DNA of 64,000 nt from a bacterium (GCA_028823995.1 JAPPFD010000031.1:123877-187876), one strand, 5' to 3'. Positions 40,508 through 56,319 are shown, counted from the first letter of the stretch. Program-made: numbers and translations. Notes: generated by a model from the letters alone, not told the origin.

Positions 40508-40930
40508 GTGGCAGTCATCTTGGACACTGTTGCGTTGCTATGGATGTCTCAAGGTAGCCCGAGACTGGGCACCCGAAGCTCACTCGAAATCGAACAGGCG
40601 GCCCGTGATGGTTCCTTGAGGTTCTCGACGATTTCAATGCTGGAGGTCTCCCGCCTCCATTGGGACGAGAACATCGATCTGCGAGTGTCCCCGGAGGTAT
40701 GGTTGCGGGGTCTTCTCGACGGAGGCGTCCACGAGATTCCCGTAACCGGGGAGATCGCCGGATTGGCCGGGTCTTTGAAGGTCCGCCATGGTTTCCATTC
40801 TGACCCTGCGGATCAACTGATCACCGCCACCGCGATCGTGACTAGGAGCAGCCTGATCACCTCCGACCGCAGAATTCTGAGTTGGGCGAGGCACAGAGAT
40901 GACATCCAGTGTCTCGACGCCCGTACTTGA
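40508..40930 (+). CDS. PIN-domain toxin (VapC-like)
   Basis: 140 aa, GTG start 10 nt after the antitoxin stop, acidic PIN residues (D6, E..., D near the C-terminus 'ITSDRRI'). Low GC. Confidence 0.7.
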   Translation: MAVILDTVALLWMSQGSPRLGTRSSLEIEQAARDGSLRFSTISMLEVSRLHWDENIDLRVSPEVWLRGLLDGGVHEIPVTGEIAGLAGSLKVRHGFHSDPADQLITATAIVTRSSLITSDRRILSWARHRDDIQCLDART

Positions 40931-41836: not shown

Positions 41837-41889
41837 CGAAGGTTCCCTTCTCTTGTTCTCTGAGTCAACCAGCTAGGGATATAGTACCC

Positions 41890-42813
41890 GTGATGGGCTT
41901 CATCACGACGGTGACCGGTGATGTGCCGACCGAAGAAATCGGCGCAGTCCTGATGCATGAGCACATCTTTTGCGACTTCCACAGGATCACCAATGACCTG
42001 AACCAGATACTGGATGACCCAGACCTGGTCACCGCCGAACTGGGCCACCTGGAAGCCACGCCGGTGCGAACGGTGGTGGAGATGACCAGCGTCGGTTTGG
42101 GCCGGGACCTGAAGGGCCTGCGGGAGATCGCCATGCGGACGGGCCTCAACATAGTGGCCGGCTGTGGCTGGTACCGCGAGCCGTTTCTCCCACGGGAGGT
42201 CTTCGAGACAACCTCGGACGGCCTGGCGGAGATCCTGGTCTCAGAGATCAATGAGGGGGCTCAGGACGGGAGAGTACGGCCGGGGATCATAGGAGAGATC
42301 GGCGCCAAGCGGGTTCCGATGACTCCAGCCGAAGAGCGGGTGCTGCGCGCCGGTGGGTTCGCGCAACTTGAGACGGGAGTCTCGATCTATACGCATGCCT
42401 CCCGGAGCACGGTCGGGATCGAGCAGGCCAGGATCCTGATCGGCATCGGCGTCCCGCCCGGGAGGATCGTGATCGGACATGCCGACACCGTGCCCCGGAA
42501 TCGGAGGGAGTACTGGGCGGAGTTGTTGGACATGGGCGTCACCCTCGGCTTCGACACGCTCAAGCCGGACCCCCCGTATGAGGTGGGAGTCCGCATAACC
42601 GGTCTGAGGTGGCTGGCCGAACGGGGATCGCTTGATCAGGTGGTGGTATCCAACGACATCTGCTACCGGTCACAGCTTCGGTCATTCGGCGGCGGCGGCT
42701 ACCCGTACTGCGTCACCGGCTTCATCGATTTGCTGCGAGAGGCCGGGTTCGGCGACCGGGAGGTCCGGACGATCTTCTGGGACACGCCGACGAGGATTCT
42801 CCAGAGACCCTAG
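41890..42813 (+). CDS. Phosphotriesterase-family (Php-like) amidohydrolase, paralogue 1
   Basis: 'HEH' at res ~22-24, 'YTHA', 'IGHAD', 'SND' metal ligands. 'PGIIGEIGA' carries Glu in place of the carboxylated Lys, as in E. coli Php. TATAGT lies 5-10 nt upstream of the GTG/ATG, suggesting a leaderless transcript. Confidence 0.85.
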   Translation: MMGFITTVTGDVPTEEIGAVLMHEHIFCDFHRITNDLNQILDDPDLVTAELGHLEATPVRTVVEMTSVGLGRDLKGLREIAMRTGLNIVAGCGWYREPFLPREVFETTSDGLAEILVSEINEGAQDGRVRPGIIGEIGAKRVPMTPAEERVLRAGGFAQLETGVSIYTHASRSTVGIEQARILIGIGVPPGRIVIGHADTVPRNRREYWAELLDMGVTLGFDTLKPDPPYEVGVRITGLRWLAERGSLDQVVVSNDICYRSQLRSFGGGGYPYCVTGFIDLLREAGFGDREVRTIFWDTPTRILQRP

Positions 42814-42879
42814 AGGCCGCACCGCGCTCTCAGCCCTGGTTGGCGTGTGGATGTCGCGAATCAAGATGCCGTGTATCGC

Positions 42880-42908
42880 TTGACATGCGGCTCTCCCAGG
42901 GTTATGGT
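42880..42908 (+). promoter_or_regulatory. Consensus-like promoter TTGACA-17-TATGGT upstream of the Dpp-like substrate-binding-protein gene
   Basis: TTGACA at 42880-42885, a 17-nt spacer, and TATGGT at 42903-42908. Confidence 0.4.
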
Positions 42909-42916
42909 CAGTGATC

Positions 42917-42926
42917 TGTGATCACA
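42917..42926. promoter_or_regulatory. Perfect palindrome TGTGATCACA (GntR-type operator consensus NyGT-N-ACrN) immediately downstream of the -10
   Basis: Read directly from the sequence. A GntR/FadR-family regulator is encoded in the same island (50249-50950). A half-site-like ATGTGATCAT also occurs at ~55207-55216, in the Ldh_2/PTE3 divergent region. Confidence 0.35.
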
Positions 42927-42966
42927 CATCACAACACAAGATTCGGACCGATTAAAAGGAGTTGGT

Positions 42967-44586
42967 ATGAGGAGAGTTTTGAAACCTCGTAGCCGCGGAG
43001 CCCCAGGCGGGTGGCGGCTAGGTCTGCAGGTTGCGATCGTATTCTGTTTGGCAGCATCTCTGCTTGCCGGGTGCGCCGAAGATGAGCCGGAGGCCCCGGC
43101 TACGACAGCCGCGCCGGCTACCACAGCCGCGCCGGCCCCGGTCGACCCTGATGCAGAGAAGAGAGGCGGGACACTACAACTGGGTACGCCTCAGCCGATA
43201 CAAACACTTGACCCGCATCAGTTCGGCATTTACAACAACCGCAACGCTTGGCCGGGTCTATTCAGCGGGCTGACGCGTTACACCGAAGAACTCGAACCGG
43301 TCCCCGATCTGGCCGTGTCATGGGACGTGGACGATGCCGGGACGGCATGGACGTTCAACCTGCGAGAGGGTGTGCAGTTCCACAATGGTGAACCATTCAC
43401 GGCTGCGGACGTCAAATACTCCCTTGACAGATTGCTCCACCCCGACACGAACGCGGGCGTCTACGCCGAAGCGATATCTACGATCGAAGAAGTCGAAGTG
43501 GTTGACGATCAAACCGTGATCTTGCACCTCTCTGCGCCTTCCGCGATCCTGCTGGCAGGGTTGGCGAGAGCCATGATCATTCCCGAGGGTTCGGGAGATA
43601 CCATCGCTCAGGAAGGCATCGGAACCGGGCCCTTCGTAATGGTCGACTATGTCGCCGACGAGCGTCTGATCATGACCCGGAACGAGAACTACTGGGAAGA
43701 GGGATTGCCCTACCTTGACGGAGTCGAGGTGACCGTGCAGCCCGACACGACCACGCTGTTCACGGCCCTGAGCGCCGGCGACGTTGACATCTATTGGCAG
43801 CTCGAGCCGCGTTTCGTCCAGCAGATCGCCAAGGAAGGCGAGTTGCGGACACTCTTCGCCCCCAGTTCCTCGGTTGTCACGTATATGAGCATTTACAACG
43901 GCGCTCCGCCGTTTGACGATGTGCGTGCCCGCCAGGCGCTGCTTCACGCCTTGGATCTCGAGACCATCAACACCCTTGCGTTCTTCGACACGGGAATAGC
44001 GGTGCCGACTAACAACCTGCTTCCTCCGGGCCACTGGGCCGAGGCCCCCGGCCTTACCGAGTACCCGTATGATCTTGACCGCGCCAAGGCGCTGTTCGAA
44101 GAAGTAGGTGTTACCGAACTCAGCTATGTCGGACTCAACATCGTGCCGTGGACCCGGATCATCGGAGAGGTGATGGAACAGTCCTTCGGAAAGATCGGGA
44201 TCAAGTTGAACGTCTCGATGCCGGAACTCGGTGGGTGGGCTGAAGCCTTCACGCCGCACCCGGCGCCCGGCAGCATCGTGGCCAATGCCGCGCTTCCTGA
44301 CTACGATCCGGCCTTCCTGTGGAATCTCTCCCACCCCGACGTCAACCCGTGGGGGTTCGGGGACGAGTCCTACGCTCAGCTTCTTGCGGATGCTGCGGCC
44401 GAGTTGGATCTGGACAAGCGCATAGCAGCCTACGGCGAGGTGCAGAAGGTCTGGAACGCGGAAGTTCCAACTCCGATCCTGTACTTTGACCGCTGGTTCC
44501 ATGGTGTGCGAGACCGGGTCCAGGACTTGAAGCACCTCAACAGTGGTGACCTCGATTACAGGGAGACATGGCTCACCGATAAGTAA
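42967..44586 (+). CDS. Family-5 (DppA/OppA-type) ABC substrate-binding lipoprotein
   Basis: Lipobox 'LAGCAEDEP', Ala/Thr/Pro linker, 539 aa SBP_bac_5 profile. Confidence 0.85.
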   Translation: MRRVLKPRSRGAPGGWRLGLQVAIVFCLAASLLAGCAEDEPEAPATTAAPATTAAPAPVDPDAEKRGGTLQLGTPQPIQTLDPHQFGIYNNRNAWPGLFSGLTRYTEELEPVPDLAVSWDVDDAGTAWTFNLREGVQFHNGEPFTAADVKYSLDRLLHPDTNAGVYAEAISTIEEVEVVDDQTVILHLSAPSAILLAGLARAMIIPEGSGDTIAQEGIGTGPFVMVDYVADERLIMTRNENYWEEGLPYLDGVEVTVQPDTTTLFTALSAGDVDIYWQLEPRFVQQIAKEGELRTLFAPSSSVVTYMSIYNGAPPFDDVRARQALLHALDLETINTLAFFDTGIAVPTNNLLPPGHWAEAPGLTEYPYDLDRAKALFEEVGVTELSYVGLNIVPWTRIIGEVMEQSFGKIGIKLNVSMPELGGWAEAFTPHPAPGSIVANAALPDYDPAFLWNLSHPDVNPWGFGDESYAQLLADAAAELDLDKRIAAYGEVQKVWNAEVPTPILYFDRWFHGVRDRVQDLKHLNSGDLDYRETWLTDK

Positions 44587-44605
44587 GCGGTAGTCTGTCC
44601 AATCC

Positions 44606-46309
44606 GTGGAATCGTTCACGACCCCGCTTCCGATGGAAGACGGTATCCGGCTAGCAACCGATATCTTCCTTCCATCCGGAAGCGGGGGTCCCCACCCCGC
44701 GTTGCTGATGCGGACACCCTACGACAAGGCTCGGGTGGAGGATGGACGGATGATCTATACCGAGATCGTTGGAGAGGCGGTCAAGGCCGGCTATGCCGTG
44801 GCCATTCAGGATCTCCGTGGGCGTTTTGAATCCGAGGGGGAATTCGTGCCGTTTCACGAAAACCCCGTCAGCGACGCAAGGGACGGTGCAGCCACCGTGT
44901 CTTGGATCAGAGCTCAGGACTGGTGCGACGGCTCCGTTGCGATGTGGGGTGACTCCTACGGGGCTTGGACACAGTGGAAGGTAGCTATTGACGGGGACGT
45001 CAAACCCGACGCCATCTTTCCCTCCGGCCTTCCGATGAGCGCCCTCGATTCGCCCGTCCTGAGGCCTGCCAGGCGAATCCTCTGGTATGTCGGCCGCATG
45101 GGGCCCGACTCACGCCGGCGCTCGGACCGGAGCGAACACTCCCTCGACGCGGAGTCCGCTTACCGTAACTGGCGAACGGTGGAGAGAAGCCGTTGGCTGT
45201 GGTTTCTCCCCTGGAACGAAATGCCCGATTATCTGCTTGGCGGCCTCTCACCCCACTACCAAAGCCTGCTTCGAAGCAGGCCAAGCGACTATCTGTCGTG
45301 GATCAGACGTTGTGAGGAGTTTGAGGGACCTGTGTTGCTTCTGACCGGTTGGTTCGACATAGATGTGGGCAGCGTGATCGAACTCCATGGAAGGCTGAGC
45401 AACCGACCGGGCGAGTCCGGCCCTGCGTATCTGATCATCGGCCCTTGGAAGCACATGGACCCCAAATACGATCTGAGCCGACACCGGGGTGAGATCGACT
45501 TCGGCGAAGCTGCCCAATGGTCCTATCCGGATGTCTTGGTCCAATGGTCCGATTTTGTTCTGAAAGGCAAGCCCGGACCTCTGTTTCCCGGACCGCCGAT
45601 CCGGTATTTCGCGATGGGGGATGGGTCCAACCAGTGGCAGGAGGCCGACCGCTGGTCTGAGATCGTCGCACCTTCCCAGCGCCTCTATCTCACATCCACT
45701 GCCGCGTCGGGTGAGAGTGGCGGCGCCCTCTCGGAATCTCCTTCCACGGAGACCGCGACTTGGCGCTATGTGTACGATCCGCGAGACCCGGTTCCTTCGG
45801 CCGTGGACGAGGACGCGTACTATGGCCCCTTCGACATCGGCTACATGGACATGCGACCGGATGTCCTGTCCTTTGCCACCGCGCCGATTGACCAACCGCT
45901 CGACATCCGCGGATCGGTGGATGTTGACCTCGTGGTGGCCAGCAGCGCCGTCGACACCGACTTCTGTGCCTGGGTCGCCGAAGAACGCCCGGACGGCGCG
46001 TCGATTCTTATTGCCAGCGGGTTTGTCCGAGCCAGGTACCGGAACGGGATCGATCAGGAGACATTCTTAGAACCGGGAAGGCCCGAGACGATCCGGATCC
46101 GGTGTCGCCCGACCGTCTACCGCCTGGCCGCAGGGTCTCGCCTGGTGGTGAAGATTTCCAGCAGTGACTTCCCGGACTATGACCGGAGTCACAATCTCGG
46201 GACCGATCCCTACTCGGATGCCCGACTCGTATCGGCAGTGCAGACATTGACAAGTGGACCGGAGGAGCCGTGCAGCGTCTACCTGCCGGTATCGGGGCCT
46301 GTGAAATGA
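44606..46309 (+). CDS. CocE/NonD-family alpha/beta hydrolase (Xaa-Pro dipeptidyl-peptidase / alpha-amino-acid-ester hydrolase-like)
   Basis: 'DGIRLATDIFLPSG...PALLMRTPYDK' N-terminus, nucleophile 'GDSYGA', C-terminal jelly-roll domain, 567 aa. Confidence 0.85.
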   Translation: MESFTTPLPMEDGIRLATDIFLPSGSGGPHPALLMRTPYDKARVEDGRMIYTEIVGEAVKAGYAVAIQDLRGRFESEGEFVPFHENPVSDARDGAATVSWIRAQDWCDGSVAMWGDSYGAWTQWKVAIDGDVKPDAIFPSGLPMSALDSPVLRPARRILWYVGRMGPDSRRRSDRSEHSLDAESAYRNWRTVERSRWLWFLPWNEMPDYLLGGLSPHYQSLLRSRPSDYLSWIRRCEEFEGPVLLLTGWFDIDVGSVIELHGRLSNRPGESGPAYLIIGPWKHMDPKYDLSRHRGEIDFGEAAQWSYPDVLVQWSDFVLKGKPGPLFPGPPIRYFAMGDGSNQWQEADRWSEIVAPSQRLYLTSTAASGESGGALSESPSTETATWRYVYDPRDPVPSAVDEDAYYGPFDIGYMDMRPDVLSFATAPIDQPLDIRGSVDVDLVVASSAVDTDFCAWVAEERPDGASILIASGFVRARYRNGIDQETFLEPGRPETIRIRCRPTVYRLAAGSRLVVKISSSDFPDYDRSHNLGTDPYSDARLVSAVQTLTSGPEEPCSVYLPVSGPVK

Positions 46310-47379
46310 TGTCTTCCGGGCAGTCAAAGGGACGATCCGACCGGTTTATCGACTTGCGTAGCGACACCTACAACCTACCCACGCAGGCGATGTTGACGCG
46401 TCTTGGATCCGCCGTCGAAGGTCCACGTATTGGAGGGGCGGAACAGTACACCCGGGAACTGGAGCGGGCAGTATCCGCCCTGACCTCCAAGGAAGCCGCT
46501 GTGTTCCTTCCCACCTGCAGCGCCGCCAATCTCCTGGCGCTGATGGCGCTGGCCAACCCGGCCGAGAACGTTGTTGTTGACGCCGACTCGCACATACGGT
46601 GGCTGGAGGCGAACAGCGCCTCGGTCACAGGAGGGGTCCAGTTGGTCCCCGTGCCAAGAGCCGGCAGCGTCGTCGACCCGGTCGCCTTGGTCGATTTCGC
46701 GGAACGATCGTCCCACTTCGGGCTTCCGCCCCTGGGTTTGATCTGTGTTGAGAACTCTCACAACAACGCCGGGGGAACGGTGGCGACCCGGTCGGACATG
46801 AAACGGGTCTCCAGCATGGCGCGCAAATACGGCGCCCGCGTTCATATCGATGGGGCCCGCATCTTCAACGCTGCCGCTCGCCTCGACGCTGAGGTCAGCG
46901 AACTGTGTGCCCCGGCCACCACGGTGGCGTTGAGCCTCAACAAGAGTCTGGGAGCACCGTACGGCGCCGTTCTGGCGGGTCCTGGAGACGTCATTGCCAA
47001 AGCTAGGAACCTCCGGGGTCAACTGGGCATCGCGTCCATACACCAGGAGGGCCTATTCGCAACGATGGCGCTGGAGGCTCTTGAAACCAACATGGAGGAT
47101 CCACGCCTCGACAACCACGAGGCGGAAAAGTTGGCGCGATCTCTCACCCGGCACTTCGCGTCCGAGTTGGCGGTGCAAACTCCCCAGACCAACATCATTC
47201 TCTTTGACGTTTTGGCGGACCTGACCGCCGCCGAGTTCTGCAGGGAACTGGAGACCAGGGGAGTACTGGCAAAACCGCGGTCTGCCACCCGGTCGGTTCG
47301 TCTCGTCGTGAATCGTGGGTCGCGACAACACGATCTGGGACGTGTGACAGAAGCCTTCGCCAGTGTGCTAGGTCATTAA
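46306..47379 (+). CDS. Low-specificity threonine-aldolase-like PLP enzyme (fold type I)
   Basis: 'DLRSDTYNLPTQAM' N-terminus, PLP-Lys region 'SLNKSLGAPYG'. Start at ATG 46306 (ATGA overlap with CocE). Confidence 0.75.
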   Translation: MMSSGQSKGRSDRFIDLRSDTYNLPTQAMLTRLGSAVEGPRIGGAEQYTRELERAVSALTSKEAAVFLPTCSAANLLALMALANPAENVVVDADSHIRWLEANSASVTGGVQLVPVPRAGSVVDPVALVDFAERSSHFGLPPLGLICVENSHNNAGGTVATRSDMKRVSSMARKYGARVHIDGARIFNAAARLDAEVSELCAPATTVALSLNKSLGAPYGAVLAGPGDVIAKARNLRGQLGIASIHQEGLFATMALEALETNMEDPRLDNHEAEKLARSLTRHFASELAVQTPQTNIILFDVLADLTAAEFCRELETRGVLAKPRSATRSVRLVVNRGSRQHDLGRVTEAFASVLGH

Positions 47380-47390
47380 CAGGGAGGCTT

Positions 47391-48305
47391 ATGGGTTCCA
47401 TTGTGACAGTGACAGGTGAGGTGCCCAGCACGGACATCGGCGCAGTACTGATGCACGAGCACATCATGTGTGATCTCTACCGGATCTCTGGTTTCCCGGA
47501 CCATCAACTCAACGATGTCGATCTAGCTGTCAGTGAGCTTGGTCACCTGGATAAGACTCCGGTGCGGACGGTGGTCGATGTGACGAGTGTCGGACTGGGC
47601 AGAGATCTCCAGACTCTGCGACAAATCGCTATGGCCACGGGACTGAACATCGTTGCCGGATGTGGTTGGTACCGCGATCCTTACCTGCCACAGGACGTCT
47701 TCGATAAGACTTCCGACGAACTGGCCGACATCCTGGTCTCGGAGATAAACGGAGGGTCTGGCGACGGGTGGATTCGACCGGGGATCATTGGAGAAATAGG
47801 GGCGTACACGGATCCGATGTCTCCTGCGGAGGAGCGAGTCCTACGTGCAGGCGCGTTTGCACAAGTGGAGACGGGGGTCGCCTTGTATACGCACGCGGCC
47901 CGCAGCGCGGTTGGGATCGAGCAGGCCAGCATCCTGCTCGGAATGGGCGTTCCGCCCGAGCGGATAGTCATCGGCCACTCTGACACGTTCCCGCGGAAGG
48001 AGTACTGGTCGGAGTTGCTCGGCATGGGTGTCACCCTCGGATTCGACACTGTGAGGCCTCACTTTCCCTATGATGTCGAGGTCCGCATCGCCGGTCTGAT
48101 GTGGCTGGCGGAGCGAGGCTCCCTGGATCGTGTCGTGGTCTCCAACGACGTGTGCATTCGCTCACATCTCCGCGCGTACAACGGCGGGGGTTACCCGTAC
48201 TGCGCCACGGATTTCTTCGACTCTCTGCGAAGGGTCGGGTTCGGTGACCAGGAATTCCGCACGATCTTCCATGAGAACCCGGCCCGGCTTCTCGCTGTTC
48301 TGTAA
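47391..48305 (+). CDS. Phosphotriesterase-family (Php-like) amidohydrolase, paralogue 2
   Basis: About 70 % identical to paralogues 1 and 3, with the same ligand set HEH/YTHA/IGHSD/SND and Glu in place of Lys. Confidence 0.85.
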   Translation: MGSIVTVTGEVPSTDIGAVLMHEHIMCDLYRISGFPDHQLNDVDLAVSELGHLDKTPVRTVVDVTSVGLGRDLQTLRQIAMATGLNIVAGCGWYRDPYLPQDVFDKTSDELADILVSEINGGSGDGWIRPGIIGEIGAYTDPMSPAEERVLRAGAFAQVETGVALYTHAARSAVGIEQASILLGMGVPPERIVIGHSDTFPRKEYWSELLGMGVTLGFDTVRPHFPYDVEVRIAGLMWLAERGSLDRVVVSNDVCIRSHLRAYNGGGYPYCATDFFDSLRRVGFGDQEFRTIFHENPARLLAVL

Positions 48306-48308
48306 GCC

Positions 48309-50252
48309 ATGACCGGGGCAGAGCAAGGATCCCAAGACGGCGGCCGCCCGCCGACGCTGGAGATCAGCGATTTGACTTTGTCTCTCGAGGGAGTCGGCGC
48401 CGATCCCGTGGACTTGGTCAAGGGCGTCAGCCTGGAAATCTCCCAGGGCCAGTGCCTCGGGTTGGTCGGAGAGTCCGGGGCGGGGAAGAGCCTGACAGCC
48501 AAGGCCATTGTGGGACTCCTGCCCAGGGGGATCAGCGTCTCGCGCGGTTCGATCAGGGTCGGCGGGCAGCCTCTGACGTCCTCGCAAGTCAACTGGCGGG
48601 AAATCCGGGGCGTACTGGTCGGGACCATTTTCCAGGACCCCATGTCCAGCCTCAACCCGGTCATGAGAATACGGACCCAGGTGGAGGAGGTGATCAAGGC
48701 ACATTTGACCCTCAACAGGCATGAACGGGACCAACGAGTGGTCGAGTTGATGGAAGCCGTGGACCTTCCCGGTCACAAGGGCTTCCTGTCCCGCTACCCG
48801 CATGAGCTGTCGGGCGGCCAGCAGCAGAGGGTGGCGATCGCCATGGCCATTGCCTGCGATCCGTTGCTATTGATCGCCGATGAAGCGACAACCGCCCTGG
48901 ATGTCCGCACCCAGGCCCAAATCCTGAGGCTGCTCAGGTCCCTCGTGGATGACTTGGGACTAAGCATGCTGCTGGTTACTCACGACATGGGGGTCATCGC
49001 CGGCGTTTCGGATCGACTGGCGGTGCTCTACTCAGGACGTGTCGTCGAAAGGGGCAGGACTCCCGACGTCCTGTCCAATCCTCACCATCCCTACACGAGT
49101 GGCCTCATCGAAAGTTGCCCTCTCGATCTCAAGGGCGGGTTCCGGACCGAGGTCCGGCCCATCATGGGGACGGCGCCGATCGACGCGGAGTCGATCTGGG
49201 ACAAATGCGTCTATGCGCCCCGCTGCTCCCGAGCCGAGAGCAAGTGTCGAAGTCACTCTCCGCCAATGGAGGATTACGGAGAGTTGCATGGCGCCGCATG
49301 CTTCTATCCGTTGGGGGATGTACCAGGAGACGAATCACCCGCGACATCGGGTGAGGTGGATACAGGCCCCCTGACGTCATCCGGACCGGCCCTTCTCACC
49401 ACGGCGGCACGCGGACCGGGGTCGCCGCCGCAGAATGGAAAAGGAGCAGAAGGCACCAACGATGTAATCGTGCAAGCGACCGGACTAACCGTCTCCTACA
49501 GGGAAGGGCGCACATTCTCCTACAGCCGGAAGGCTGTCCCGGCCGTTCAGGAGTTCGACCTTGAATTGAGGAAGGCTGAGACCGTGGCGGTGGTGGGAGA
49601 GTCGGGAAGCGGTAAATCAACCGTCGCCCGCGCCCTGATACGGCTGGAGCCAAACAACGCGGTGGTGGAGGGGCGACGCCAAATCCTCGGCGCCGACCTG
49701 GATGAACTGGGTAGGGGCGCCCTGCGGGGCATGCGCCGGAGGGCACAGATAATCTTTCAGGATCCCTACGGAAGCCTCAACCCGCGGCGCAGGGTTGTCG
49801 ACCTCCTGATGGAAGGCCCTCGCGCGCACGACCTTGAGTCCTCCGATCCGCCCTTGGATCGAGCCGGACAGTTACTGGAACGCGTCGGTTTGGATCCGTC
49901 CTTCGCCGACCGGTATCCACACCAGATGTCGGGCGGTCAACGCCAGAGGGTGGCGATCGCCCGGGCGCTTTCCCTGGAGCCCCAGGTCCTGATTTGCGAC
50001 GAACCGGTTTCGGCGCTGGATGTCAGCATCCAGGCCCAGATACTGGAACTCCTGGCGTCACTGGCCCGCCAGGAGGGACTGGCGTTCGTTTTCATAACTC
50101 ATGACTTGGGAGTGATGAACATGCTCGCCGACAGGGTCATCGTGATGAAAGAAGGAAAAACCGTCGAGACCGGCATGGTCGAGGAGGTACTCGCTCGGCC
50201 GAACACCCGATACACCAGAGAACTCATCCAAGCCAGTCTGGTTGCGATATGA
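48309..50252 (+). CDS. Fused tandem ABC ATPase (DppD-DppF-like), two nucleotide-binding domains
   Basis: Two Walker A motifs ('GESGAGKS', 'GESGSGKS'), two signatures ('LSGGQQQRV', 'MSGGQRQRV'), 647 aa. Confidence 0.9.
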   Translation: MTGAEQGSQDGGRPPTLEISDLTLSLEGVGADPVDLVKGVSLEISQGQCLGLVGESGAGKSLTAKAIVGLLPRGISVSRGSIRVGGQPLTSSQVNWREIRGVLVGTIFQDPMSSLNPVMRIRTQVEEVIKAHLTLNRHERDQRVVELMEAVDLPGHKGFLSRYPHELSGGQQQRVAIAMAIACDPLLLIADEATTALDVRTQAQILRLLRSLVDDLGLSMLLVTHDMGVIAGVSDRLAVLYSGRVVERGRTPDVLSNPHHPYTSGLIESCPLDLKGGFRTEVRPIMGTAPIDAESIWDKCVYAPRCSRAESKCRSHSPPMEDYGELHGAACFYPLGDVPGDESPATSGEVDTGPLTSSGPALLTTAARGPGSPPQNGKGAEGTNDVIVQATGLTVSYREGRTFSYSRKAVPAVQEFDLELRKAETVAVVGESGSGKSTVARALIRLEPNNAVVEGRRQILGADLDELGRGALRGMRRRAQIIFQDPYGSLNPRRRVVDLLMEGPRAHDLESSDPPLDRAGQLLERVGLDPSFADRYPHQMSGGQRQRVAIARALSLEPQVLICDEPVSALDVSIQAQILELLASLARQEGLAFVFITHDLGVMNMLADRVIVMKEGKTVETGMVEEVLARPNTRYTRELIQASLVAI

Positions 50253-50950
50253 ATCGTCCTTCGACACAGCTTCCCCAATCCAACGATCCCATGTACCGGA
50301 CGCTGGAAGACTTTGCATACAACACCATCCGTGAAGCGATCCTGCATGGGGAACTGAAACCCGGGGAGAGGATTCTGCTCAAGGACCTGGAGGCCACGTA
50401 CCGAATCAGCCGCACCCCGATCCGCCAAGCTCTGAGGCGACTGTCCGAGCGTGGATACGTCACTCTGCAACCGCATTCCTCCATGCGGGTGCGGCCCCTG
50501 AGCCCGGAGGAACTGAACGAGCTTTACGCCCTACGCCGGGCGATCGAACCGATAGCAATCGCGGAGGGTATCAAGAGAGCTGACGACTCCGTCATGGCCT
50601 TCCTGGATTCCCTCCTCGGGGAAATGCATGCTGCCACGGAAAGGGAGGACCGCGTGAGTCTCATCGGGCTCAACAGCAAGTTCCACAGGTCGATGTATGA
50701 GCCCTCCGGAATGCCTCACCTGCTTTCCATGTATGACAGGCTGGTGGGCATCTGCGAGCGTTATCAGTGGACCCAAGCGAACGCGCCCGTCACCGAACTC
50801 AGAGGCGACCGCCGGCATCACGAAGAGATCATGGACGCCTATCGCCGCAGGGACGAGGGTCGGGCCATCGACCTGATTCAAATCCACCTGGAGCAGGCCC
50901 GCGAGGCCATCCTGAGACATCTGAGTTCCCGGGGAGCCCTGGCGCCATGA
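50249..50950 (+). CDS. GntR-family (FadR/FCD subfamily) transcriptional regulator
   Basis: Winged HTH 'ILLKDLEATYRISRTPIRQALRRLSERGYV' plus an FCD effector domain. Confidence 0.85.
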   Translation: MNRPSTQLPQSNDPMYRTLEDFAYNTIREAILHGELKPGERILLKDLEATYRISRTPIRQALRRLSERGYVTLQPHSSMRVRPLSPEELNELYALRRAIEPIAIAEGIKRADDSVMAFLDSLLGEMHAATEREDRVSLIGLNSKFHRSMYEPSGMPHLLSMYDRLVGICERYQWTQANAPVTELRGDRRHHEEIMDAYRRRDEGRAIDLIQIHLEQAREAILRHLSSRGALAP

Positions 50951-52344
50951 CGGAGAGGAGCTGTCGGGAGTTCGACGCCGCCAATCGCCACCTGAACGCC
51001 TTCGTAGCGGTGCGTCACACCTCCGAAGGCCGCCAGGACTCGACAGGCCCCGCCCCGGCCGGCGATTCGGAGATCCGCCGCTCGTGGGGAGACGATCGAG
51101 GGAGGACGCTGGCTGTGAAGGACAACATAGCCGTGGAGGGATTCCCGTTGGCCGCGGGTCTCGGCGTTCCGGTGCTTTCCCAGGACGAAACGGTCTCCGC
51201 CGCGTGGGTCGAGTGGCTGGTTGGCCGGGGGTTTGTGATCTTGGGCAAGGCCAATATGTATGAACTCGGTTACGGCGCCCCAGGCTGCGGGTTGCCTCCG
51301 GCGGTGAATCCGTGGGACCACTCCCTGATTCCCGGTGGAAGCTCGAGCGGCTCAGCCGTGGCCGTGGCGGCGGCGCTGTGCGCGGCGGCTCTGGGCACGG
51401 ATGCAGCCGGATCCGTCCGGATCCCAGCGGAGTATTGCGGGGTTCTCTCCTACAAGCCGTCCGGGAAACAGGCTTGGCACAAAGACGGCATCTGGCCCGG
51501 ACCTTCCACTCTCGATGCCATCGGAATAATGACGCGAGACCTGGACCTTCTGGCCCAGGCCATCCCGTCCCAAAGCGGCCGCGGCGAAGGAGACGACAGC
51601 CACGGTACCCGTGCACCTTCGGACTCCGGGCGGGACACCCTTTGCATCGGGATCCTGGATCTCGACGGTGAAGATGTGGACGACGATCATGCTCTGATAC
51701 TGGAGGAGGTACGAGCCTGGGCGGAAGATCGCGGCTTTGCCACATTGAGCGTGCAACTGCCAGGTCTGGGGAGCCGCGTCCGGGATGCGATCTGGAAGAT
51801 ATTTGCCTACGAGTACTCCCGCGCTCTCGAGTTGCATCTCACCGAAGAGGCCAGGGCGGTGCTGTCCGCCCCTTCCCGCCAGTTGCTTGCCGACGGTCCC
51901 AGGACCACCGCCGAGGAGTATTCGGGAGCGTTGGACGCCCGGCTCCGGCTGCAGCGCCGATACGCCGAGGAACTGAGCGACTGTCATGCGGTCGTGACCC
52001 CCGTCACTCCGGTACGGCCCTATTCCCTGACCTGGTCTCGCGCCTTTGCTCAATGCGAGGAGGACGAGGTCTCCGGGAGTCCGATCGATCTGTCAAACGT
52101 CGAAGCCTTACTGACCAGGAAGACCCGGTACACCGCGCCGATCAACCTGGTCGAGTACCCGACGCTGACCCTTCCCATGCGCCTTCATAGGGATGGCCTA
52201 CCGGTGGGAATCCAGATTGCCTCGGTTCCTGAACACGAGCCTGAGATGTGGGGCATCGCCCAAAGGATGTGGCAGGACCTCGGTCCGCAAGCACAACGCA
52301 AGGATGGGCGAGCCAGGTTGTACGGCAGCTTTGCGGATATGTAG
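50947..52344 (+). CDS. Amidase-signature (AS) family amidase
   Basis: 'GGSSSGSAVAVAA' AS motif with the catalytic Ser, Lys in 'LAVKDNI'. Start at ATG 50947 (ATGA overlap with the GntR gene), and the track's 50767 start is an extension. Confidence 0.85.
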   Translation: MTERSCREFDAANRHLNAFVAVRHTSEGRQDSTGPAPAGDSEIRRSWGDDRGRTLAVKDNIAVEGFPLAAGLGVPVLSQDETVSAAWVEWLVGRGFVILGKANMYELGYGAPGCGLPPAVNPWDHSLIPGGSSSGSAVAVAAALCAAALGTDAAGSVRIPAEYCGVLSYKPSGKQAWHKDGIWPGPSTLDAIGIMTRDLDLLAQAIPSQSGRGEGDDSHGTRAPSDSGRDTLCIGILDLDGEDVDDDHALILEEVRAWAEDRGFATLSVQLPGLGSRVRDAIWKIFAYEYSRALELHLTEEARAVLSAPSRQLLADGPRTTAEEYSGALDARLRLQRRYAEELSDCHAVVTPVTPVRPYSLTWSRAFAQCEEDEVSGSPIDLSNVEALLTRKTRYTAPINLVEYPTLTLPMRLHRDGLPVGIQIASVPEHEPEMWGIAQRMWQDLGPQAQRKDGRARLYGSFADM

Positions 52345-53303: not shown

Positions 53304-54151
53304 ACTTCTGGAAAACCATGGTCACCCGGGACCGCGTGGCGCTGGTGGCGGCTGTCATCCTCGGTCTCATCGCGGTGTTCGCGCTGATTTGGCCGTTTGT
53401 CAGCCCCTACGGCCCTCGAGAGATCCATGCCGACGCCGCCTTGAGCGGCCCGTCGGCCCGGTTTTGGCTGGGCACTGATGACACCGGGCGCGACATGGTG
53501 ACCCTGCTCGCCCATGGGGCCCGAATCTCCCTGGGGATTGCCGTGGCGGCCGAGATACTGGCTGTGATTTCCGGCGTCCCGCTGGCCATGATGGCGGGGT
53601 TGCTGGGAGGCATCGTCGACAGCATCATCATGCGCACCACGGACGCCCTTCTGGGTTTTCCTGGCATCCTGATCGGGTTGATGGTGGTGACGCTGTTCGG
53701 AGCATCGCTGGCCACCTTGATGATTGCCATTGCGCTGATGACCGTGCCCTATCTGATCAGAGTCGTCAGGAACGCGGTTGTCGTCGAGAAGCAGAGGCTG
53801 TACGTGGTCTCATCGACTGCCCTTGGCGTCAAACCGGGGACCTTGCTGCGCAGGACGATCCTGCCCAACATCGTTTCGCCGCTGATAGTACAGGTGTCAT
53901 TCGGTCTGGCGGTAGCCATCCTGACCGAGGCTTCATTGGGCTTTCTGGGCCTCAGCGTGCAGCCACCGGCCGCCTCATGGGGGACGCTTCTCCAGGTGGG
54001 TTACAGCTACATCCGCATCACACCGTGGCTGGTGTTATTTCCCGGCATTCTGATTTTCGTCAGCGTTTGGGCTTTGAACACCCTCGGCGACGCGGGGCGC
54101 GATGTGTTGGACCCCCGCCTGCGAGACACTGTTGAGCAGGGCGCCCGGTAG
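53300..54151 (+). CDS. ABC permease (DppC-like)
   Basis: 6 TM helices, 'ASLGFLGLSVQPP' DppC-type EAA loop. Confidence 0.85.
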   Translation: MNFWKTMVTRDRVALVAAVILGLIAVFALIWPFVSPYGPREIHADAALSGPSARFWLGTDDTGRDMVTLLAHGARISLGIAVAAEILAVISGVPLAMMAGLLGGIVDSIIMRTTDALLGFPGILIGLMVVTLFGASLATLMIAIALMTVPYLIRVVRNAVVVEKQRLYVVSSTALGVKPGTLLRRTILPNIVSPLIVQVSFGLAVAILTEASLGFLGLSVQPPAASWGTLLQVGYSYIRITPWLVLFPGILIFVSVWALNTLGDAGRDVLDPRLRDTVEQGAR

Positions 54152-54188
54152 ACCGGAGGCTCACACCCCGGTCATGGGTGACAAAGGG

Positions 54189-55214
54189 TCAAACTGCAGC
54201 CGCCATCTCCTGCAGGGTCCTGTGGAAGGCGCTCGGCACCAGGATCCCGTTGCTGATGGATTCCCGGCGGGCCGCGTAGCGCCGTTCGGAAGGTAAGCGG
54301 GTTCCTTCCTGGGCGAGCACCCGGCCAAAGAGCTTCTCAGAGTGGCTGAGCGGACTCTGTGTATCCGCGTGGAAGTGTGTCGGGTCGATCGCAATGATCA
54401 GCTCTCCTCCCAATGGCGGCATGTCTTCGCGGGGATCGGTCTCTGTTGCCTCGAAGCTGAATGGGGCGCCGATCAACGCCCCGGCAAGCAGTTCGACCAT
54501 CAGGGCGAGGGCAGCGCCCTTGTAGCCGCCGAACGGCAACTGAGAGCCCTTCAGGCCTTCCTCAGGGTCGGAAGTCGGGTTGCCGTCCGCGTCGATGGCC
54601 CATCCCGGGGGTATGGGTTTCCCGTCTCGGTGATGGAGCAGGAGGTCTCCCCGGGAACTCGCGCTGGAAGCCTGATCGAATACCAAGGGTGGAGCGCCGT
54701 CGCGGGGCCAACCGAAGGCCATCGGGTTGGTGCCGTACACCCGCTGGGTTCCTCCGGCCGGAGCCACGAAGGCCATGTACTGGGTGAAGGCGAATGAGAC
54801 AAGGCCTTGCTCTGCCAACCACTCCACCTCGGGCCAGAGCGCTGCTACGTGATAACAATTCACAATGGAGACCGCAGCGATCCCATTTGCCTTTGCCTTT
54901 TGGACAAGCCGTTCGATGCCTACCTGGATCGCCAGGGGGGCATAACCCCGGTTGGCGTCGACTCTCGCCAAACCCGGAGAGATGTCTCGAGTCTTGGGAA
55001 CCGCCGTTCCATTCACTTTGCCGTCTTCGAGACCCTTCACATAGAAGGGCACCCGGAACAGACCATGAGCTTTACAATCGTCGCGCTCCGCCGCGGTGAT
55101 GGTTCGAGCCACGGCGTCGGCGTTCTCCGCAGATGCTCCATTCACCACCAGAGCAGCTCTTGCGAGTTGATGGACTTCTTCGAGAGATACTCTTACTAGG
55201 TCATTCTCAGGCAT
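54189..55214 (-). CDS. Ldh_2-family (malate/L-lactate dehydrogenase type 2) NAD(P)H oxidoreductase
   Basis: 341 aa, 'ITAAERDDCKAHGLFRVPFYV' catalytic His region typical of COG2055 (pyrroline/piperideine-2-carboxylate reductase, sulfolactate dehydrogenase). Confidence 0.8.
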   Translation of the reverse strand: MPENDLVRVSLEEVHQLARAALVVNGASAENADAVARTITAAERDDCKAHGLFRVPFYVKGLEDGKVNGTAVPKTRDISPGLARVDANRGYAPLAIQVGIERLVQKAKANGIAAVSIVNCYHVAALWPEVEWLAEQGLVSFAFTQYMAFVAPAGGTQRVYGTNPMAFGWPRDGAPPLVFDQASSASSRGDLLLHHRDGKPIPPGWAIDADGNPTSDPEEGLKGSQLPFGGYKGAALALMVELLAGALIGAPFSFEATETDPREDMPPLGGELIIAIDPTHFHADTQSPLSHSEKLFGRVLAQEGTRLPSERRYAARRESISNGILVPSAFHRTLQEMAAAV

Positions 55215-55404
55215 GTGATCATCCCTCCTCGGAAAGCCTTCCGTTAGAGCCTACCCGTACGGTCGAGTCGTTGCCGGGTCCCGCTCCTGTTATTGCCGAC
55301 ACCCAAGCTCAACGGGTTGATTCACGCCTGTCCCGAAGCCGGGAAGGTCGTGTCGGAGGCCACCAGGCCGATGCGGCCCCGGCTGCGAGCTTATAGTTCC
55401 GGCC

Positions 55405-56319
55405 ATGGGTTCCATCATGACCGTGACCGGTGAAGTGCCGGCTGCCGAAGTCGGCGCCGTCCTCATGCATGAGCACATCATGTGTGATCTGTACCGCGTG
55501 AGCCTCAACTCGGATCACCTGCTCGATGACGTCGACCTTGCCACCAGAGAGATTCGCCATCTGCAGGCCACTCCGGTGCGAACAGTGGTTGACGTGACCA
55601 GCGTGGGTCTGGGGAGGGATCTTGAAACGCTGCGGAACATCGCTTTGCAGACCAATATCAACATTGTCGGTGGATCAGGGTGGTACCGCGACCCCTTCTT
55701 CCCGCAGGAGGTCCTTGACAAGACCTCGGACGGGCTGGCGGAGGTGCTGATCTCCGAGATTGAAGACGGGCTCCAGGGCAGTGGAATACGACCGGGGATC
55801 ATCGGGGAGATCGGAGCTCTCCGGAGGCCGATGTCTCCGGCGGAAGAACGGGTGCTGCGCGCCGGGGGATTCGCCCAACTAGAAACGGGAGTCTCGATAT
55901 ACACGCATGCCGCCCGGAGCACGGTCGGGATAGACCAGGCCAGGATCCTGGTCAGGATGGGTGTTCCGGCCGACCGGATAGTCATCGGCCACTCCGATAC
56001 GGTGCCCCGGAAGGAGTATTGGGCGGAACTGCTGGACATGGGTGTCACGCTCGGGTTCGACACCGTGAGACCGCACTTCCCTTATGACCTGGAGGTTCGC
56101 GTGGCGGCCTTGGAGTGGCTGGCTGAACGCGGTGCCTTGGACCGGGTCGTCATCTCCAACGACGTGTGCTTCCGATCCCATCTGCGCGCCTTCGACGGCG
56201 GTGGTTACCCATTCTGCGCCACCGACTTCTTCGACTCCCTGCGACAAGTCGGGTTCGGAGACCAGGAGTTTCAGACGATATTCTGTGACAACCCGGTCCG
56301 GCTTTTGGAGCGGTCCTAA
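55405..56319 (+). CDS. Phosphotriesterase-family (Php-like) amidohydrolase, paralogue 3
   Basis: Same signatures as paralogues 1 and 2. Confidence 0.85.
   Translation: MGSIMTVTGEVPAAEVGAVLMHEHIMCDLYRVSLNSDHLLDDVDLATREIRHLQATPVRTVVDVTSVGLGRDLETLRNIALQTNINIVGGSGWYRDPFFPQEVLDKTSDGLAEVLISEIEDGLQGSGIRPGIIGEIGALRRPMSPAEERVLRAGGFAQLETGVSIYTHAARSTVGIDQARILVRMGVPADRIVIGHSDTVPRKEYWAELLDMGVTLGFDTVRPHFPYDLEVRVAALEWLAERGALDRVVISNDVCFRSHLRAFDGGGYPFCATDFFDSLRQVGFGDQEFQTIFCDNPVRLLERS

Follow-up and report, generated by a model that had tools for sequence, protein, structure and literature searches.

The region described here is a catabolic locus of an uncultured marine actinobacterium of the class Acidimicrobiia, contained in a window of 64,000 nucleotides (JAPPFD010000031.1:123877-187876; positions are counted from its first letter). 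Three genes of the phosphotriesterase (PTE) family, all on the plus strand, occur there together with a Dpp-type importer and other enzymes (Table 1): PTE2 lies within a conserved, repressor-controlled import and breakdown operon, and PTE1 and PTE3 are located on its flanks. The three proteins match Pfam PF02126 (PTE) end to end (E 5e-63 to 5e-67; gathering score 22.4 bits), with protein identities of 70% (PTE1/PTE2), 68% (PTE1/PTE3) and 76% (PTE2/PTE3) and nucleotide identities of 72–73%, in agreement with an initial annotation that had placed three PTE-family genes of about 70% identity at these positions. All three are intact, with no internal stops, and are not pseudogenes; their products have no signal peptide and are cytoplasmic. 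The true start of PTE1 is probably the ATG at 41893 rather than the GTG at 41890. The gene content reported for the island was also found in full (SBP_bac_5, Peptidase_S15/CocE_NonD, Beta_elim_lyase, fused DppD/F ATPase, GntR-FCD, Amidase, two permeases and Ldh_2).

Table 1. Genes and regulatory elements of the PTE locus, in window coordinates.
Feature	Position	Strand	Remarks
HpcH/CitE-like C-C lyase	40964..41836	-	Pfam PF03328, E 1e-42; NCBIfam RipC/CitE-like below cut-off
PTE1 -10 box, TATAGT	41880..41885	+	7 nt before ATG 41893
PTE1, Php-like binuclear-metal hydrolase	41890..42813	+	PF02126 match; outside operon, independently transcribed
Operon promoter, TTGACA, 17 nt, TATGGT	42880..42908	+	sigma-70-like site
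Palindromic operator GTGATCTGTGATCACACATCAC, core TGTGATCACA	42911..42932	.	directly downstream of -10 box
Family-5 lipoprotein substrate-binding protein (SBP)	42967..44586	+	Pfam PF00496; lipobox LAGC, then Pro/Ala/Thr linker
CocE/NonD-family serine hydrolase	44606..46309	+	TIGR00976, 291 bits (cut-off 66)
PLP-dependent threonine-aldolase-like enzyme	46270..47379	+	PF01212, E 1e-58
PTE2, Php-like hydrolase of operon core	47391..48305	+	PF02126 match
Fused double ABC ATPase, DppD/DppF type	48309..50252	+	two ABC_tran stretches and oligo_HPY
GntR-family regulator with FCD effector domain	50249..50950	+	PF00392 and PF07729; also one in the L019 operon
Amidase-signature amidase	50767..52344 (ORF)	+	PF01425, E 1e-55
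Two permeases, DppB and DppC type	52248-53303, 53300-54151	+	BPD_transp_1 with BPD_transp_1_N or OppC_N; last genes of operon
Ldh_2-family oxidoreductase	54189..55214	-	PF02615, E 2e-95
PTE3 -10 box, TATAGT	55392..55397	+	7 nt before ATG 55405
PTE3, Php-like hydrolase, offshoot of PTE2-type lineage	55405..56319	+	PF02126 match

The operon comprises 10 genes (42967-54151) under a single promoter, in the order lipoprotein SBP, CocE-like hydrolase, threonine-aldolase-like enzyme, PTE2, ABC ATPase, GntR/FCD regulator, amidase and two permeases. Its genes overlap or are separated by gaps of 20 bp at most; the spacers between PTE2 and the neighbouring aldolase and ATPase genes are 11 and 3 bp, respectively. 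When the binding protein is aligned with DppA (1dpp), D408 falls opposite an Asn and R355 in a gap (the alignment is of modest confidence there), both being residues that hold the free dipeptide in DppA. Judged by its sequence the protein is not a canonical dipeptide binder, and since it does not have these DppA residues "peptide-like" is to be read as a family label only. The CocE/NonD hydrolase matches PDB 1ju3 over residues 7-562 (E 1.7e-71) and is full-length like cocaine esterase. The aldolase-like enzyme matches L-allo-threonine aldolase (2fm1/1jg8, E 1e-50) and scores 212 bits with the GntG-family aldolase model, below the cut-off of 230; its ORF runs into the end of the preceding S15 gene, which leaves the start uncertain. 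The amidase probably begins near 50947, as its Pfam domain starts only at residue 61; it reached no NCBIfam equivalog and has no PDB relative at E<=1e-30.

The operon promoter is the only sigma-70-like site found in the 40.4–57 kb interval and is kept in 14/14 Acidimicrobiia loci. The operator is likewise kept in all 14 while the flanking spacer diverges, and is presumed to be the site at which the GntR/FCD repressor encoded in the operon binds; its position right after the -10 box suggests repression by this regulator until an effector arrives. In locus L019, the PTE of which is only 47% identical, SBP5, S15, aldolase, PTE and ABC genes occur in the same order with GntR and amidase genes alongside, the equivalent promoter reads TTGACA then CATAGT, and the same TGTGATCACA core lies within an 18-bp perfect palindrome upstream of the operon. 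Neighbourhoods of relatives at 39–47% identity repeatedly hold Dpp-type importers, M20/S58/M24/amidase hydrolases, PLP enzymes and imine-handling enzymes. The association of the PTEs with an importer and hydrolases, as originally proposed, therefore holds for PTE2, on the basis of the L019 gene order and operator core, but does not extend to PTE1 and PTE3, which lie outside the operon.

Two further genes border the operon and its flanking PTE copies. The Ldh_2 gene, convergent with the operon and divergent from PTE3, travels with the island in Acidimicrobiia and is absent from L014 and L019. Its best solved relative by far is delta1-piperideine-2-carboxylate reductase (1wtj/2cwf/2cwh, E 5e-75; next match 5e-38), and its product is a putative DpkA-like imine/N-alkyl-amino-acid reductase. 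The HpcH/CitE-like lyase gene, divergent from PTE1 across a 53-bp spacer, is a conserved left flank found in 14/14 loci, including the island-less L014. Class-III aminotransferases are encoded upstream in the window.

Residue-by-residue alignment identified six Php-type metal ligands in PTE1-3 (H22/H24, E135, H168, H196 and D253 in PTE2/PTE3 numbering), the Php counterparts of which are H12/H14, E125, H158, H186 and D243. E135 is part of the invariant motif RPGIIGEIGA, in which Glu replaces the carbamylated Lys, and the six residues are invariant in 42 relatives with identities down to 37%; the alignment to Php thus confirms the earlier assignment of HxH, H, H, D ligands and a Php-like Glu. 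The AlphaFold model of PTE2 (mean pLDDT 95.8) superimposes on 1bf6 with TM 0.91/0.95 and an rmsd of 1.6 A. In the pocket, Y94, R95, R129 and C255 are invariant or nearly so across the wider clade, and R171, R202, K/R203, N252 and C271 do not vary among the three paralogue types but do so in distant relatives; only 10 positions discriminate the PTE types, with mostly conservative changes. Through a chain of alignments R171, three residues past the beta5 His, and Y94 correspond to Arg209 and Tyr131 of sponge PTER, which are the anion-binding/selectivity-filter residue and the oxyanion residue, respectively (PMC12873775). PTER acts as an amidohydrolase on N-acetyltaurine and N-acetyl-beta-alanine (PMC11374699, PMC13311154, PMC12873775), and N-acyl amides therefore belong among the candidate substrates; as the pocket has a Tyr and one Arg in common with PTER, a small anionic amino-acid-derived ester, lactone or N-acyl amide appears most likely. 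The view that such enzymes lack an established physiological substrate still applies to Php itself, but with PTER it is out of date for the Glu-bridged members of the family.

Degradation of quorum signals or antibiotics had also been suggested, a proposal for which there are no pointers at this locus. A role of PTE1-3 as organophosphate hydrolases, or as PLL-like lactonases acting on AHLs or gamma/delta-lactones, is highly improbable, in spite of fold matches to GkaP, DrPLL and PTE variants (TM 0.85–0.88) and of a Tyr at the site which we take to be that of SsoPox Tyr97 and PTE Trp131. The bridging ligand is Glu, whereas to our knowledge all characterised PLLs and PTE/OPH carry a bridging carbamylated Lys, and the NCBIfam scores fall far below cut-off (81 bits against 500 for OPH, 72 against 630 for phospho-furanose lactonase). 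The proteins are cytoplasmic and surrounded by amino-acid enzymes and a family-5 importer rather than by acyl-chain catabolism, and the invariant arginines suggest an anionic, not a hydrophobic, substrate; AHL or organophosphate hydrolysis by PTE1-3 is unlikely.

The description of the three PTEs as lying inside one island applies to PTE2, but PTE1 and PTE3 have their own operator-free leaderless promoters and are variably present. The -10 box (TATAGT or TAGAGT) stands at the same distance in 13/13 PTE1-type copies, and the PTE3 element is identical in the window, L001, L002 and L014. No Shine-Dalgarno sequence was found in the 13 PTE1-type and four PTE3-type copies, nor a GntR operator upstream of PTE1 or PTE3. 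A -10 box so close to the ATG, together with the lack of a Shine-Dalgarno sequence, points to leaderless transcripts for both genes. PTE1 and PTE3 show no regulatory tie to the operon and persist in L014 without the operon at the locus, and hence may serve another pathway.

The paralogues are separated by dS values of 0.9–1.36, and the PTE1-type clade and the PTE2-type copies each span 13–14 species-level Acidimicrobiia genomes, which contradicts the initial designation of recent paralogues. In the tree the PTE1 and PTE3 clades have bootstrap supports of 95 and 99%, respectively, and PTE3 branches inside the PTE2-type lineage; both PTE1 and PTE3 stem from old duplications and have been gained and lost from species to species. 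With dN/dS of 0.08–0.25 among orthologues of PTE1, PTE2 and PTE3, all three copies are under purifying selection. The number of copies per genome is 1–3 (14 Acidimicrobiia loci compared): PTE2 occupies its operon position in 13/13 loci with the island, as well as in L019, PTE1 is missing from 3/14 loci and PTE3 occurs in only 4/14 genomes. In L014 PTE1 and PTE3 are direct neighbours at a locus that lacks the importer island, the PTE3 gene there being at dS 0.89 from the window copy, and one genome has a fourth-type PTE copy (L015) at a different place, with a TATAGT box of its own. GC3 is 0.69–0.74 in island genes, below most flanking genes (mostly 0.8–0.9), with PTE1 at 0.82, like most flanks, and PTE2 at 0.70, like the island; the island and the flanking PTE copies may thus differ in history.

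Php is often assumed to be a repair or detoxification hydrolase, and the separate promoters without operator, the adjacent PTE1 and PTE3 of L014, the GC3 values and the L015 copy agree with PTE1 and PTE3 being stand-alone constitutive hydrolases of this kind, which would adjoin the island only through local duplication and island insertion and leave PTE2 alone to work with the operon. This is unlikely, however: the clade-specific pocket residues are all common to the three types, which speaks for identical or closely similar substrates, PTE3 derives from within the PTE2-type lineage, and 13/14 genomes retain PTE2 or one or more extra copies at the locus.

The explanation we favour, although tentatively, is that of a GntR-repressed import and breakdown operon including PTE2, with PTE1 and PTE3 as old separate duplicates and an acylated or depsipeptide-like amino-acid compound as substrate. 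The operon products are a lipoprotein-anchored family-5 binding protein, a Dpp-type ABC importer and four cytoplasmic enzymes (CocE-like, aldolase-like, PTE2 and amidase). The importer would take up a small anionic amino-acid-derived compound with ester or lactone plus amide bonds, either depsipeptide-like or an acylated amino-acid compound. PTE2 would open a carboxylic ester or lactone bond by means of its Glu-bridged two-metal centre and hydroxide, with Tyr94 stabilising the oxyanion and Arg171 (with Arg202/Lys203) gripping the acid group of the substrate. The CocE-like hydrolase and the amidase would cleave the remaining ester and amide bonds, the aldolase would convert a released beta-hydroxy-alpha-amino acid to glycine and an aldehyde, and the Ldh_2 enzyme may handle a cyclic imine or N-alkyl amino acid. 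These chemical steps we infer from guilt by association, and, with an esterase-type and an amidase-type hydrolase among the operon products as well, the ester or lactone is only a candidate for the bond cut by PTE2. Since the clade-specific pocket residues are shared by PTE1-3, PTE1 and PTE3 probably catalyse the same reaction as PTE2, either on closely related variants of the substrate or under another form of control.

Alternatively, PTE1-3 could be PTER-like deacylases that strip short acyl groups from N-acylated amino, beta-amino or sulfonic acids (e.g., of the N-acetyltaurine or N-acetyl-beta-alanine type), the freed amino compound feeding the nearby aminotransferases and aldolase and the paralogues covering different acyl-amino acids. 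Glu-bridged PTER is the one cited relative with a demonstrated physiological substrate (PMC11374699, PMC13311154), and the PTE2 model agrees closely in fold with sponge PTER 9efa (TM 0.91). The Arg171/Tyr94 correspondence, with an Arg that is absent from Php, Rsp3690 and Pmi1525, two further invariant basic residues after the second-shell His (R202 and K203) and the class-III aminotransferases upstream point in the same direction. We nevertheless regard this reading as rather unlikely, as an invariant Cys takes the place of PTER His305, which has been proposed to donate a proton to the leaving amine, and a Thr that of Arg238, the PTER helical insertion after beta1 (residues 35-75) is missing, and PTER lies outside the best 60 PDB sequence matches (26% identity to PTE2 versus 35% for Php). 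In addition, an AS amidase is already present in the operon and taurine-specific genes (Xsc, TauABC) did not turn up in the window.

Among known systems, E. coli Php (YhfV; 1BF6/4LEF) is the closest solved relative (E 2e-55, 35% identity) and has about 300 aa, the same six metal ligands and a Glu bridge for the carbamylated Lys; relatives of the window PTEs often adjoin PLP enzymes, which presumably occur in the Php gene neighbourhood as well. PTE1-3 are not Php equivalogs (NF007373, 204 bits against a cut-off of 486): Arg171, Thr199 and Cys255 replace Phe, Leu and Thr of Php, and the importer, CocE-like hydrolase, aldolase and amidase operon around PTE2 is unlike the context of Php, for which we know of no substrate of its own. 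Rsp3690 (3K2G) and Pmi1525 (3RHG/4QSF), the second-best solved relatives (3k2g E 3e-37; TM 0.91–0.92), are bacterial PTER-like hydrolases with the same GEIG motif, reportedly of the carboxyl-esterase type, but they have about 360 aa with an insertion, Gly instead of Arg at His+3 and Phe at Asp+2. The PLLs (SsoPox 2VC5, GkaP 3TN3, DrPLL 3FDK) and P. diminuta PTE/OPH have the fold and HxH, H, H, D ligands of PTE1-3 but longer loops 7/8 (314–330 aa), and their substrates are hydrophobic, in contrast to the arginine-rich pocket of the window PTE clade. The COG1735 phospho-sugar lactonases (Lmo2620, 3PNZ), PTE-family enzymes that catabolise an anionic lactone in the cytoplasm, match in sequence (E 2e-30), but NF045706 gives 72 bits against a cut-off of 630 and sugar-phosphate genes are absent from the neighbourhood of the window PTEs. 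PTER (9EFA/9EFB) shares with PTE1-3 the PTE fold, the Glu-bridged binuclear centre and the oxyanion Tyr (PMC12873775), but is eukaryotic, single-copy and outside any operon. The three-copy locus is an ordinary yet useful pointer towards the substrate of the Php-like enzyme branch.

The three phosphotriesterase-family (PTE) paralogues of the window are members of the amidohydrolase superfamily, in its Glu-bridged part, and are nearest to Escherichia coli Php. As the initial annotation had described, each is an intact open reading frame at the stated coordinates and the proteins are about 70% identical; all three lie on the forward strand (PTE1/PTE2, 70%; PTE1/PTE3, 68%; PTE2/PTE3, 76%). All of them match PF02126 over its full length (210–227 bits against a gathering score of 22.4 bits; profile positions 3–298 of 298; E = 5e-63 to 5e-67). 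The closest solved protein is Php (1bf6/4lef; E = 2e-55), and the AlphaFold (AF2) model of PTE2 (pLDDT 95.8, pTM 0.94), in which strands and helices alternate as a (beta/alpha)8 barrel, is matched to 1bf6 by Foldseek with TM 0.91/0.95 and 1.6 A. The metal site is Php-like: in the 1bf6 alignment H22/H24, E135, H168, H196 and D253 (PTE2/PTE3 numbering) fall on the ligand positions of Php (H12/H14, E125, H158, H186 and D243), and the expected HxH (beta1), His (beta5), His (beta6) and Asp (beta8) are kept in all three proteins. The replacement of the carbamylated Lys by Glu also held on alignment; E135 lies at the end of beta4 in an invariant RPGIIGEIGA motif, opposite the Glu of the 1bf6 GIIAEIG motif. 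The six ligands do not vary among 42 aligned relatives, down to 37% identity.

Narrower assignments were rejected. The proteins form a clade related to Php and are not its orthologues (204 bits against the cut-off of 486 for the equivalog NF007373). Organophosphate hydrolase OPH (NF041153, 81 bits, cut-off 500; Glu instead of Lys at the bridge) and phospho-furanose lactonase (NF045706, 72 bits, cut-off 630) were discarded, as were the phosphotriesterase-like lactonases (PLL), which in common with PTE itself have a carbamylated-Lys bridge where the window proteins have Glu. Hydrolysis of an AHL or an organophosphate by the three enzymes appears most improbable.

PTE2 is a fixed member of a presumably repressor-controlled importer/hydrolase operon, around which PTE1 and PTE3 stand as satellites with their own promoters and in variable copy number. 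The operon consists of ten genes that overlap or are separated by gaps of at most 20 bp, and all the neighbours named in the initial annotation (Dpp-type importer, CocE/NonD hydrolase, amidase, threonine-aldolase-like enzyme and Ldh_2 reductase) were found again. Its promoter (TTGACA, 17 nt, TATGGT) is the only good sigma-70-type site between 40.4 and 57 kb, and the 22-bp palindrome GTGATCTGTGATCACACATCAC follows directly after the -10 box. Promoter and palindrome are kept in 14 of 14 Acidimicrobiia loci, while the remaining spacer drifts. Locus L019, whose PTE (P0061) is only 47% identical, has this gene complement too, with SBP5, S15, aldolase, PTE, two ATPases, two permeases, GntR/FCD and amidase; there TTGACA, CATAGT and GACCTGTGATCACAGGTC, a perfect palindrome that shares its core with the one in the window, precede the SBP gene. 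A gene for a regulator with GntR and FCD domains inside the operon and a conserved palindrome at the promoter are the features of a GntR/FCD-repressed catabolic operon. The position of the palindrome right after the -10 box implies a putative operator, to which the operon's own FCD-type GntR protein would bind as repressor. GC3 is 0.69–0.74 in the island genes (PTE2, 0.70) and 0.8–0.9 in most flanking genes (PTE1, 0.82).

Features of the PTE region and of the rest of the window (window coordinates)
Feature	Position	Strand	Remark
Stand-alone OpuAC protein	8387-9325	-	
BCCT transporter	9322-11091	-	
OpuAC/SBP_bac_3/ion-channel protein	11377-13461	+	694 aa
Hydantoinase/oxoprolinase A+B pair, then class-III aminotransferase	22469-27725	+	
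Hydantoinase/oxoprolinase A+B pair, then class-III aminotransferase	31032-36180	+	
M24 creatinase/prolidase-like gene	38895-40166	+	left of PTE region
PIN-domain gene	40508-40930	+	low-GC gap between M24 gene and HpcH
HpcH gene	40964-41836	-	divergent from PTE1
PTE1	41890-42813	+	
Operon promoter	42880-42908		
Palindrome (putative operator)	42911-42932		
Operon	42967-54151	+	ten genes
PTE2	47391-48305	+	304 aa
Ldh_2 gene	54189-55214	-	
PTE3	55405-56319	+	
PPDK_N/PEP-utilizers gene	56493-58184	-	adjoins PTE3
M24 creatinase/prolidase-like gene	58186-59454	-	right of PTE region

The satellites carry a different signal. TATAGT stands exactly 7 nt before the ATG of PTE1 and PTE3, with no ribosome-binding site, and this holds for 13 PTE1-type and 4 PTE3-type copies; the pattern is a signature of leaderless transcripts and suggests the ATG at 41893 as the probable start of PTE1. 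When the operator was sought upstream of PTE1, PTE3, Ldh_2 and HpcH, TGTGATCACA with at most one mismatch was found only at 42917 and, apart from that, once at 21733; the spacers of these four genes contain no inverted repeats. Co-regulation of the four through the GntR operator is ruled out by its absence there. A lack of functional linkage between the operon and PTE1 and PTE3 would be in keeping with these separate promoters; on the other side stands an arginine-rich set of pocket residues that all three enzymes have in common, and such a separation is considered unlikely. Within this set R171, R202, K/R203, N252 and C271 are unvarying in all three paralogue types and variable in relatives of 37–47% identity, while Y94, R95, R129 and C255 show little or no variation in the wider clade. 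Because the specificity residues common to the paralogues are basic, they point to a small, anionic substrate, in which the bond cleaved may be either an ester or an amide. Fixed differences between the types are found at only ten alignment positions and are mostly conservative (F/L29, E/D63, C/S91, S/A170, E/D228, Q/R247, Y/F270, V/A272, D/E295).

A scan of one genome per species returned 15 close loci, all from Acidimicrobiia MAGs. As to the conservation of the three-PTE arrangement, a point raised by the initial annotation, the island is conserved and the full triple is not. Of the 14 loci at this chromosomal site (L001–L014), 13 carry the block SBP5-S15-aldolase-PTE-ABC ATPase-GntR-amidase-two permeases-Ldh_2 in unchanged order, whereas PTE1, PTE2 and PTE3 occur together only in the window, in L001 (OZ242375.1; 99% identical to PTE2) and in L002. 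PTE1 and PTE2 are present in L003–L008, L010 and L011, the operon copy alone in L012 and L013, and an operon copy with a PTE1-type copy shifted to the PTE3 position in L009; L014 has PTE1 and PTE3 adjacent to each other and lacks the entire importer island at this site. A further copy (L015) lies in an unrelated locus of one genome. The region thus records paralogue turnover, with one operon-bound copy, two independently transcribed satellites and one to three copies per species.

The paralogues had been taken as recent, which the divergence data contradict. In a neighbour-joining tree of 34 PTE copies (200 bootstraps) the PTE1-type clade is split from the PTE2/PTE3-type copies with 95% support, and PTE3 is a subclade (99% support) within the PTE2-type sequences. 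Between the window paralogues dS is 0.90–1.36 and nucleotide identity 72–73%, values that rule out recent tandem duplication or gene conversion; compared with an orthologue dS of 0.02 to about 1.2, they place the PTE1/PTE2 split before all sampled species. All three genes are under purifying selection (orthologue dN/dS 0.08–0.25 for each), so that none is decaying; pseudogenisation is ruled out and the earlier view of intact genes stands. In the comparison with the near-identical L001, PTE1 shows a dS of 0.116 and PTE2 and PTE3 of 0.018; this unevenness may reflect recombination at the island's left boundary. In L009 (17924-19151) the PTE1-type gene lies downstream of Ldh_2 with its own TAGAGT box and a stretch like the 5' end of the HpcH gene, and no copy occupies the usual PTE1 position; the PTE1 cassette appears to have been relocated.

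The operon partners give some indication of the chemistry. The binding protein is a family 5 lipoprotein (lipobox LAGC) which, aligned to DppA, has Asn at D408 and a gap at R355, presumably the residues that hold the free dipeptide; the canonical DppA ligand contacts are not conserved. The S15 protein is a full-length CocE-like hydrolase (1ju3, E = 2e-71; above the TIGR00976 cut-off), and the PLP enzyme is nearest to L-allo-threonine aldolases (E = 1e-50), slightly below the GntG-aldolase cut-off. Ldh_2 is closest to delta1-piperideine-2-carboxylate reductase (1wtj, E = 5e-75; next Ldh_2 structure, 5e-38), an enzyme (DpkA) that is also active as N-methyl-amino-acid dehydrogenase. For the amidase the PDB contains no relative with E ≤ 1e-30, and no NCBIfam equivalog is reached; among the neighbour genes only the CocE_NonD subfamily was reached. 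In tblastn searches of plasmid records the best matches were 40% (PTE2) and 31% (S15 hydrolase) identical, in unrelated contexts.

We tentatively favour, at somewhat less than an even chance, a model in which PTE2 and the operon enzymes degrade an imported compound, an anionic derivative of an amino acid that contains amide bonds as well as ester or lactone bonds. PTE2 would open one such bond with a metal-activated hydroxide, the CocE-like hydrolase and the amidase would cut the remaining ones, the aldolase would cleave a beta-hydroxy amino acid and the DpkA-like enzyme would handle a cyclic imine or N-alkyl amino acid. PTE1 and PTE3 may catalyse the same type of reaction on substrate variants, or do so in different conditions.

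PTE relatives of 39–47% identity are found in nine kinds of neighbourhood, four with a Dpp/Opp-type importer and a fifth (L027) with SBP_bac_5 fragments only. Their recurrent partners include hydrolases (M20, S58, M24, amidase), PLP enzymes (alanine-racemase-fold, SelA-like and class III aminotransferases) and imine/amine enzymes (ornithine cyclodeaminase/mu-crystallin, D-amino-acid oxidase-type, RidA). These partner genes support an amino-acid-derivative theme in the wider clade and point to no specific compound. L022, L030 and L031 (PTE relatives of 42–44% identity) share another recurrent module, in which the order is M20 peptidase, SBP_bac_5, two permeases, NicX, aldo-keto reductase, DUF3830 and PTE, and L022 has a second PTE beside an Ala_racemase_N/D-Ser-dehydratase-like gene.

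Genes for the catabolism of amino compounds are densely packed in the remainder of the window (hydantoinase, aminotransferase, CoA-transferase, 2-oxoacid dehydrogenase, M24, Liv-type and betaine-type transport). The two hydantoinase pairs are separated by genes for a family-III CoA-transferase and for 2-oxoacid dehydrogenase E1 alpha/beta, and upstream there are an IclR regulator and a Liv-type ABC importer; the region looks like a second duplicated catabolic module. The two M24 paralogues are 32% identical, and the one on the right is similar to DddP-type M24 proteins from end to end, with a score far under the DddP cut-off. In most of L002–L013 the PPDK_N protein is 54–73% identical (55% in L002), against 91–98% for the neighbouring M24 protein where present and 97% for PTE3 in L002, which suggests allelic replacement or fast evolution. 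The PIN-domain gene is present, absent or very divergent (60–88% identity) in otherwise syntenic loci and is probably a mobile toxin-antitoxin remnant at a variable spot. A protein encoded next to the BCCT and OpuAC genes has an N-terminal OpuAC (glycine-betaine-binding) domain and an SBP_bac_3 domain that is interrupted by the pore of an ion channel (Ion_trans_2/Lig_chan). It resembles bacterial ligand-gated channels of the iGluR/GluR0 type, to which a betaine-type sensor would have been added.

To our knowledge the substrate of Php, whose structure has been available since 1998, is still not known, and PTER was deorphanised only in 2024. In the literature no description was found of this operon or of the PTE expansion in these bacteria, and nothing usable on Php/YhfV function or on phosphotriesterases together with sponge Acidimicrobiia or with threonine aldolase/amidase clusters. 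Since this bacterial, Glu-bridged clade belongs to an operon of tight conservation, it could be of use in finding what Php-like enzymes act on: the binding protein, the FCD-type sensor and the defined putative operator are three independent handles on the natural ligand. The locus is solid and well delimited, yet not surprising; it is no new kind of system, and its chemistry is inferred. Several isolate names of related MAGs (RHO1/RHO3_bin, SB0665_bin, OM1 bin76) resemble those of sponge-metagenome bins and suggest a possible sponge origin, for which the literature checked gave no confirmation.

The fold search with the PTE2 model also retrieved sponge PTER (9efa/9efb). PTER hydrolyses N-acetyltaurine (PMC11374699) and N-acetyl-beta-alanine (PMC13311154); the sponge enzyme binds Zn through His27, His29, Glu174, His206, His235 and Asp303, with Tyr131 as oxyanion residue, His305 as proton donor (general acid) and Arg209 (anion-binding), Arg238 and Tyr268 as sulfonate site (PMC12873775). 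In a mapping through two chained alignments, Glu174 corresponds to E135, and the oxyanion Tyr131 and the anion-binding Arg209 (His+3) have equivalents in Y94 and R171. Three features are missing: Arg238 is replaced by T199, His305 (Asp+2) by the invariant C255, and the helical insertion at residues 35–75 is absent, the PTE2 model having none after beta1. A PTER-like N-deacylase role of the PTEs is considered rather unlikely. More doubtful is its extension, in which the Acidimicrobiia clade and, with it, the long-orphan bacterial Php branch would act as animal PTER does, on small anionic metabolites of amino type that are acylated at N or O. On this reading the conserved gene set (SBP5, CocE-like hydrolase, aldolase, PTE, amidase, GntR) would encode a hitherto undescribed route for the uptake and salvage of such compounds, which might stem from a host if the MAGs are sponge symbionts, and the presence of three paralogues would broaden the range of compounds accepted. 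Were it true, the regulator, the operator and the binding protein of the operon could be used to identify the natural substrate. At the Arg209 position Php has Phe, and Rsp3690 and Pmi1525 have Gly; among the solved relatives examined, the window PTEs share the Arg with PTER only.
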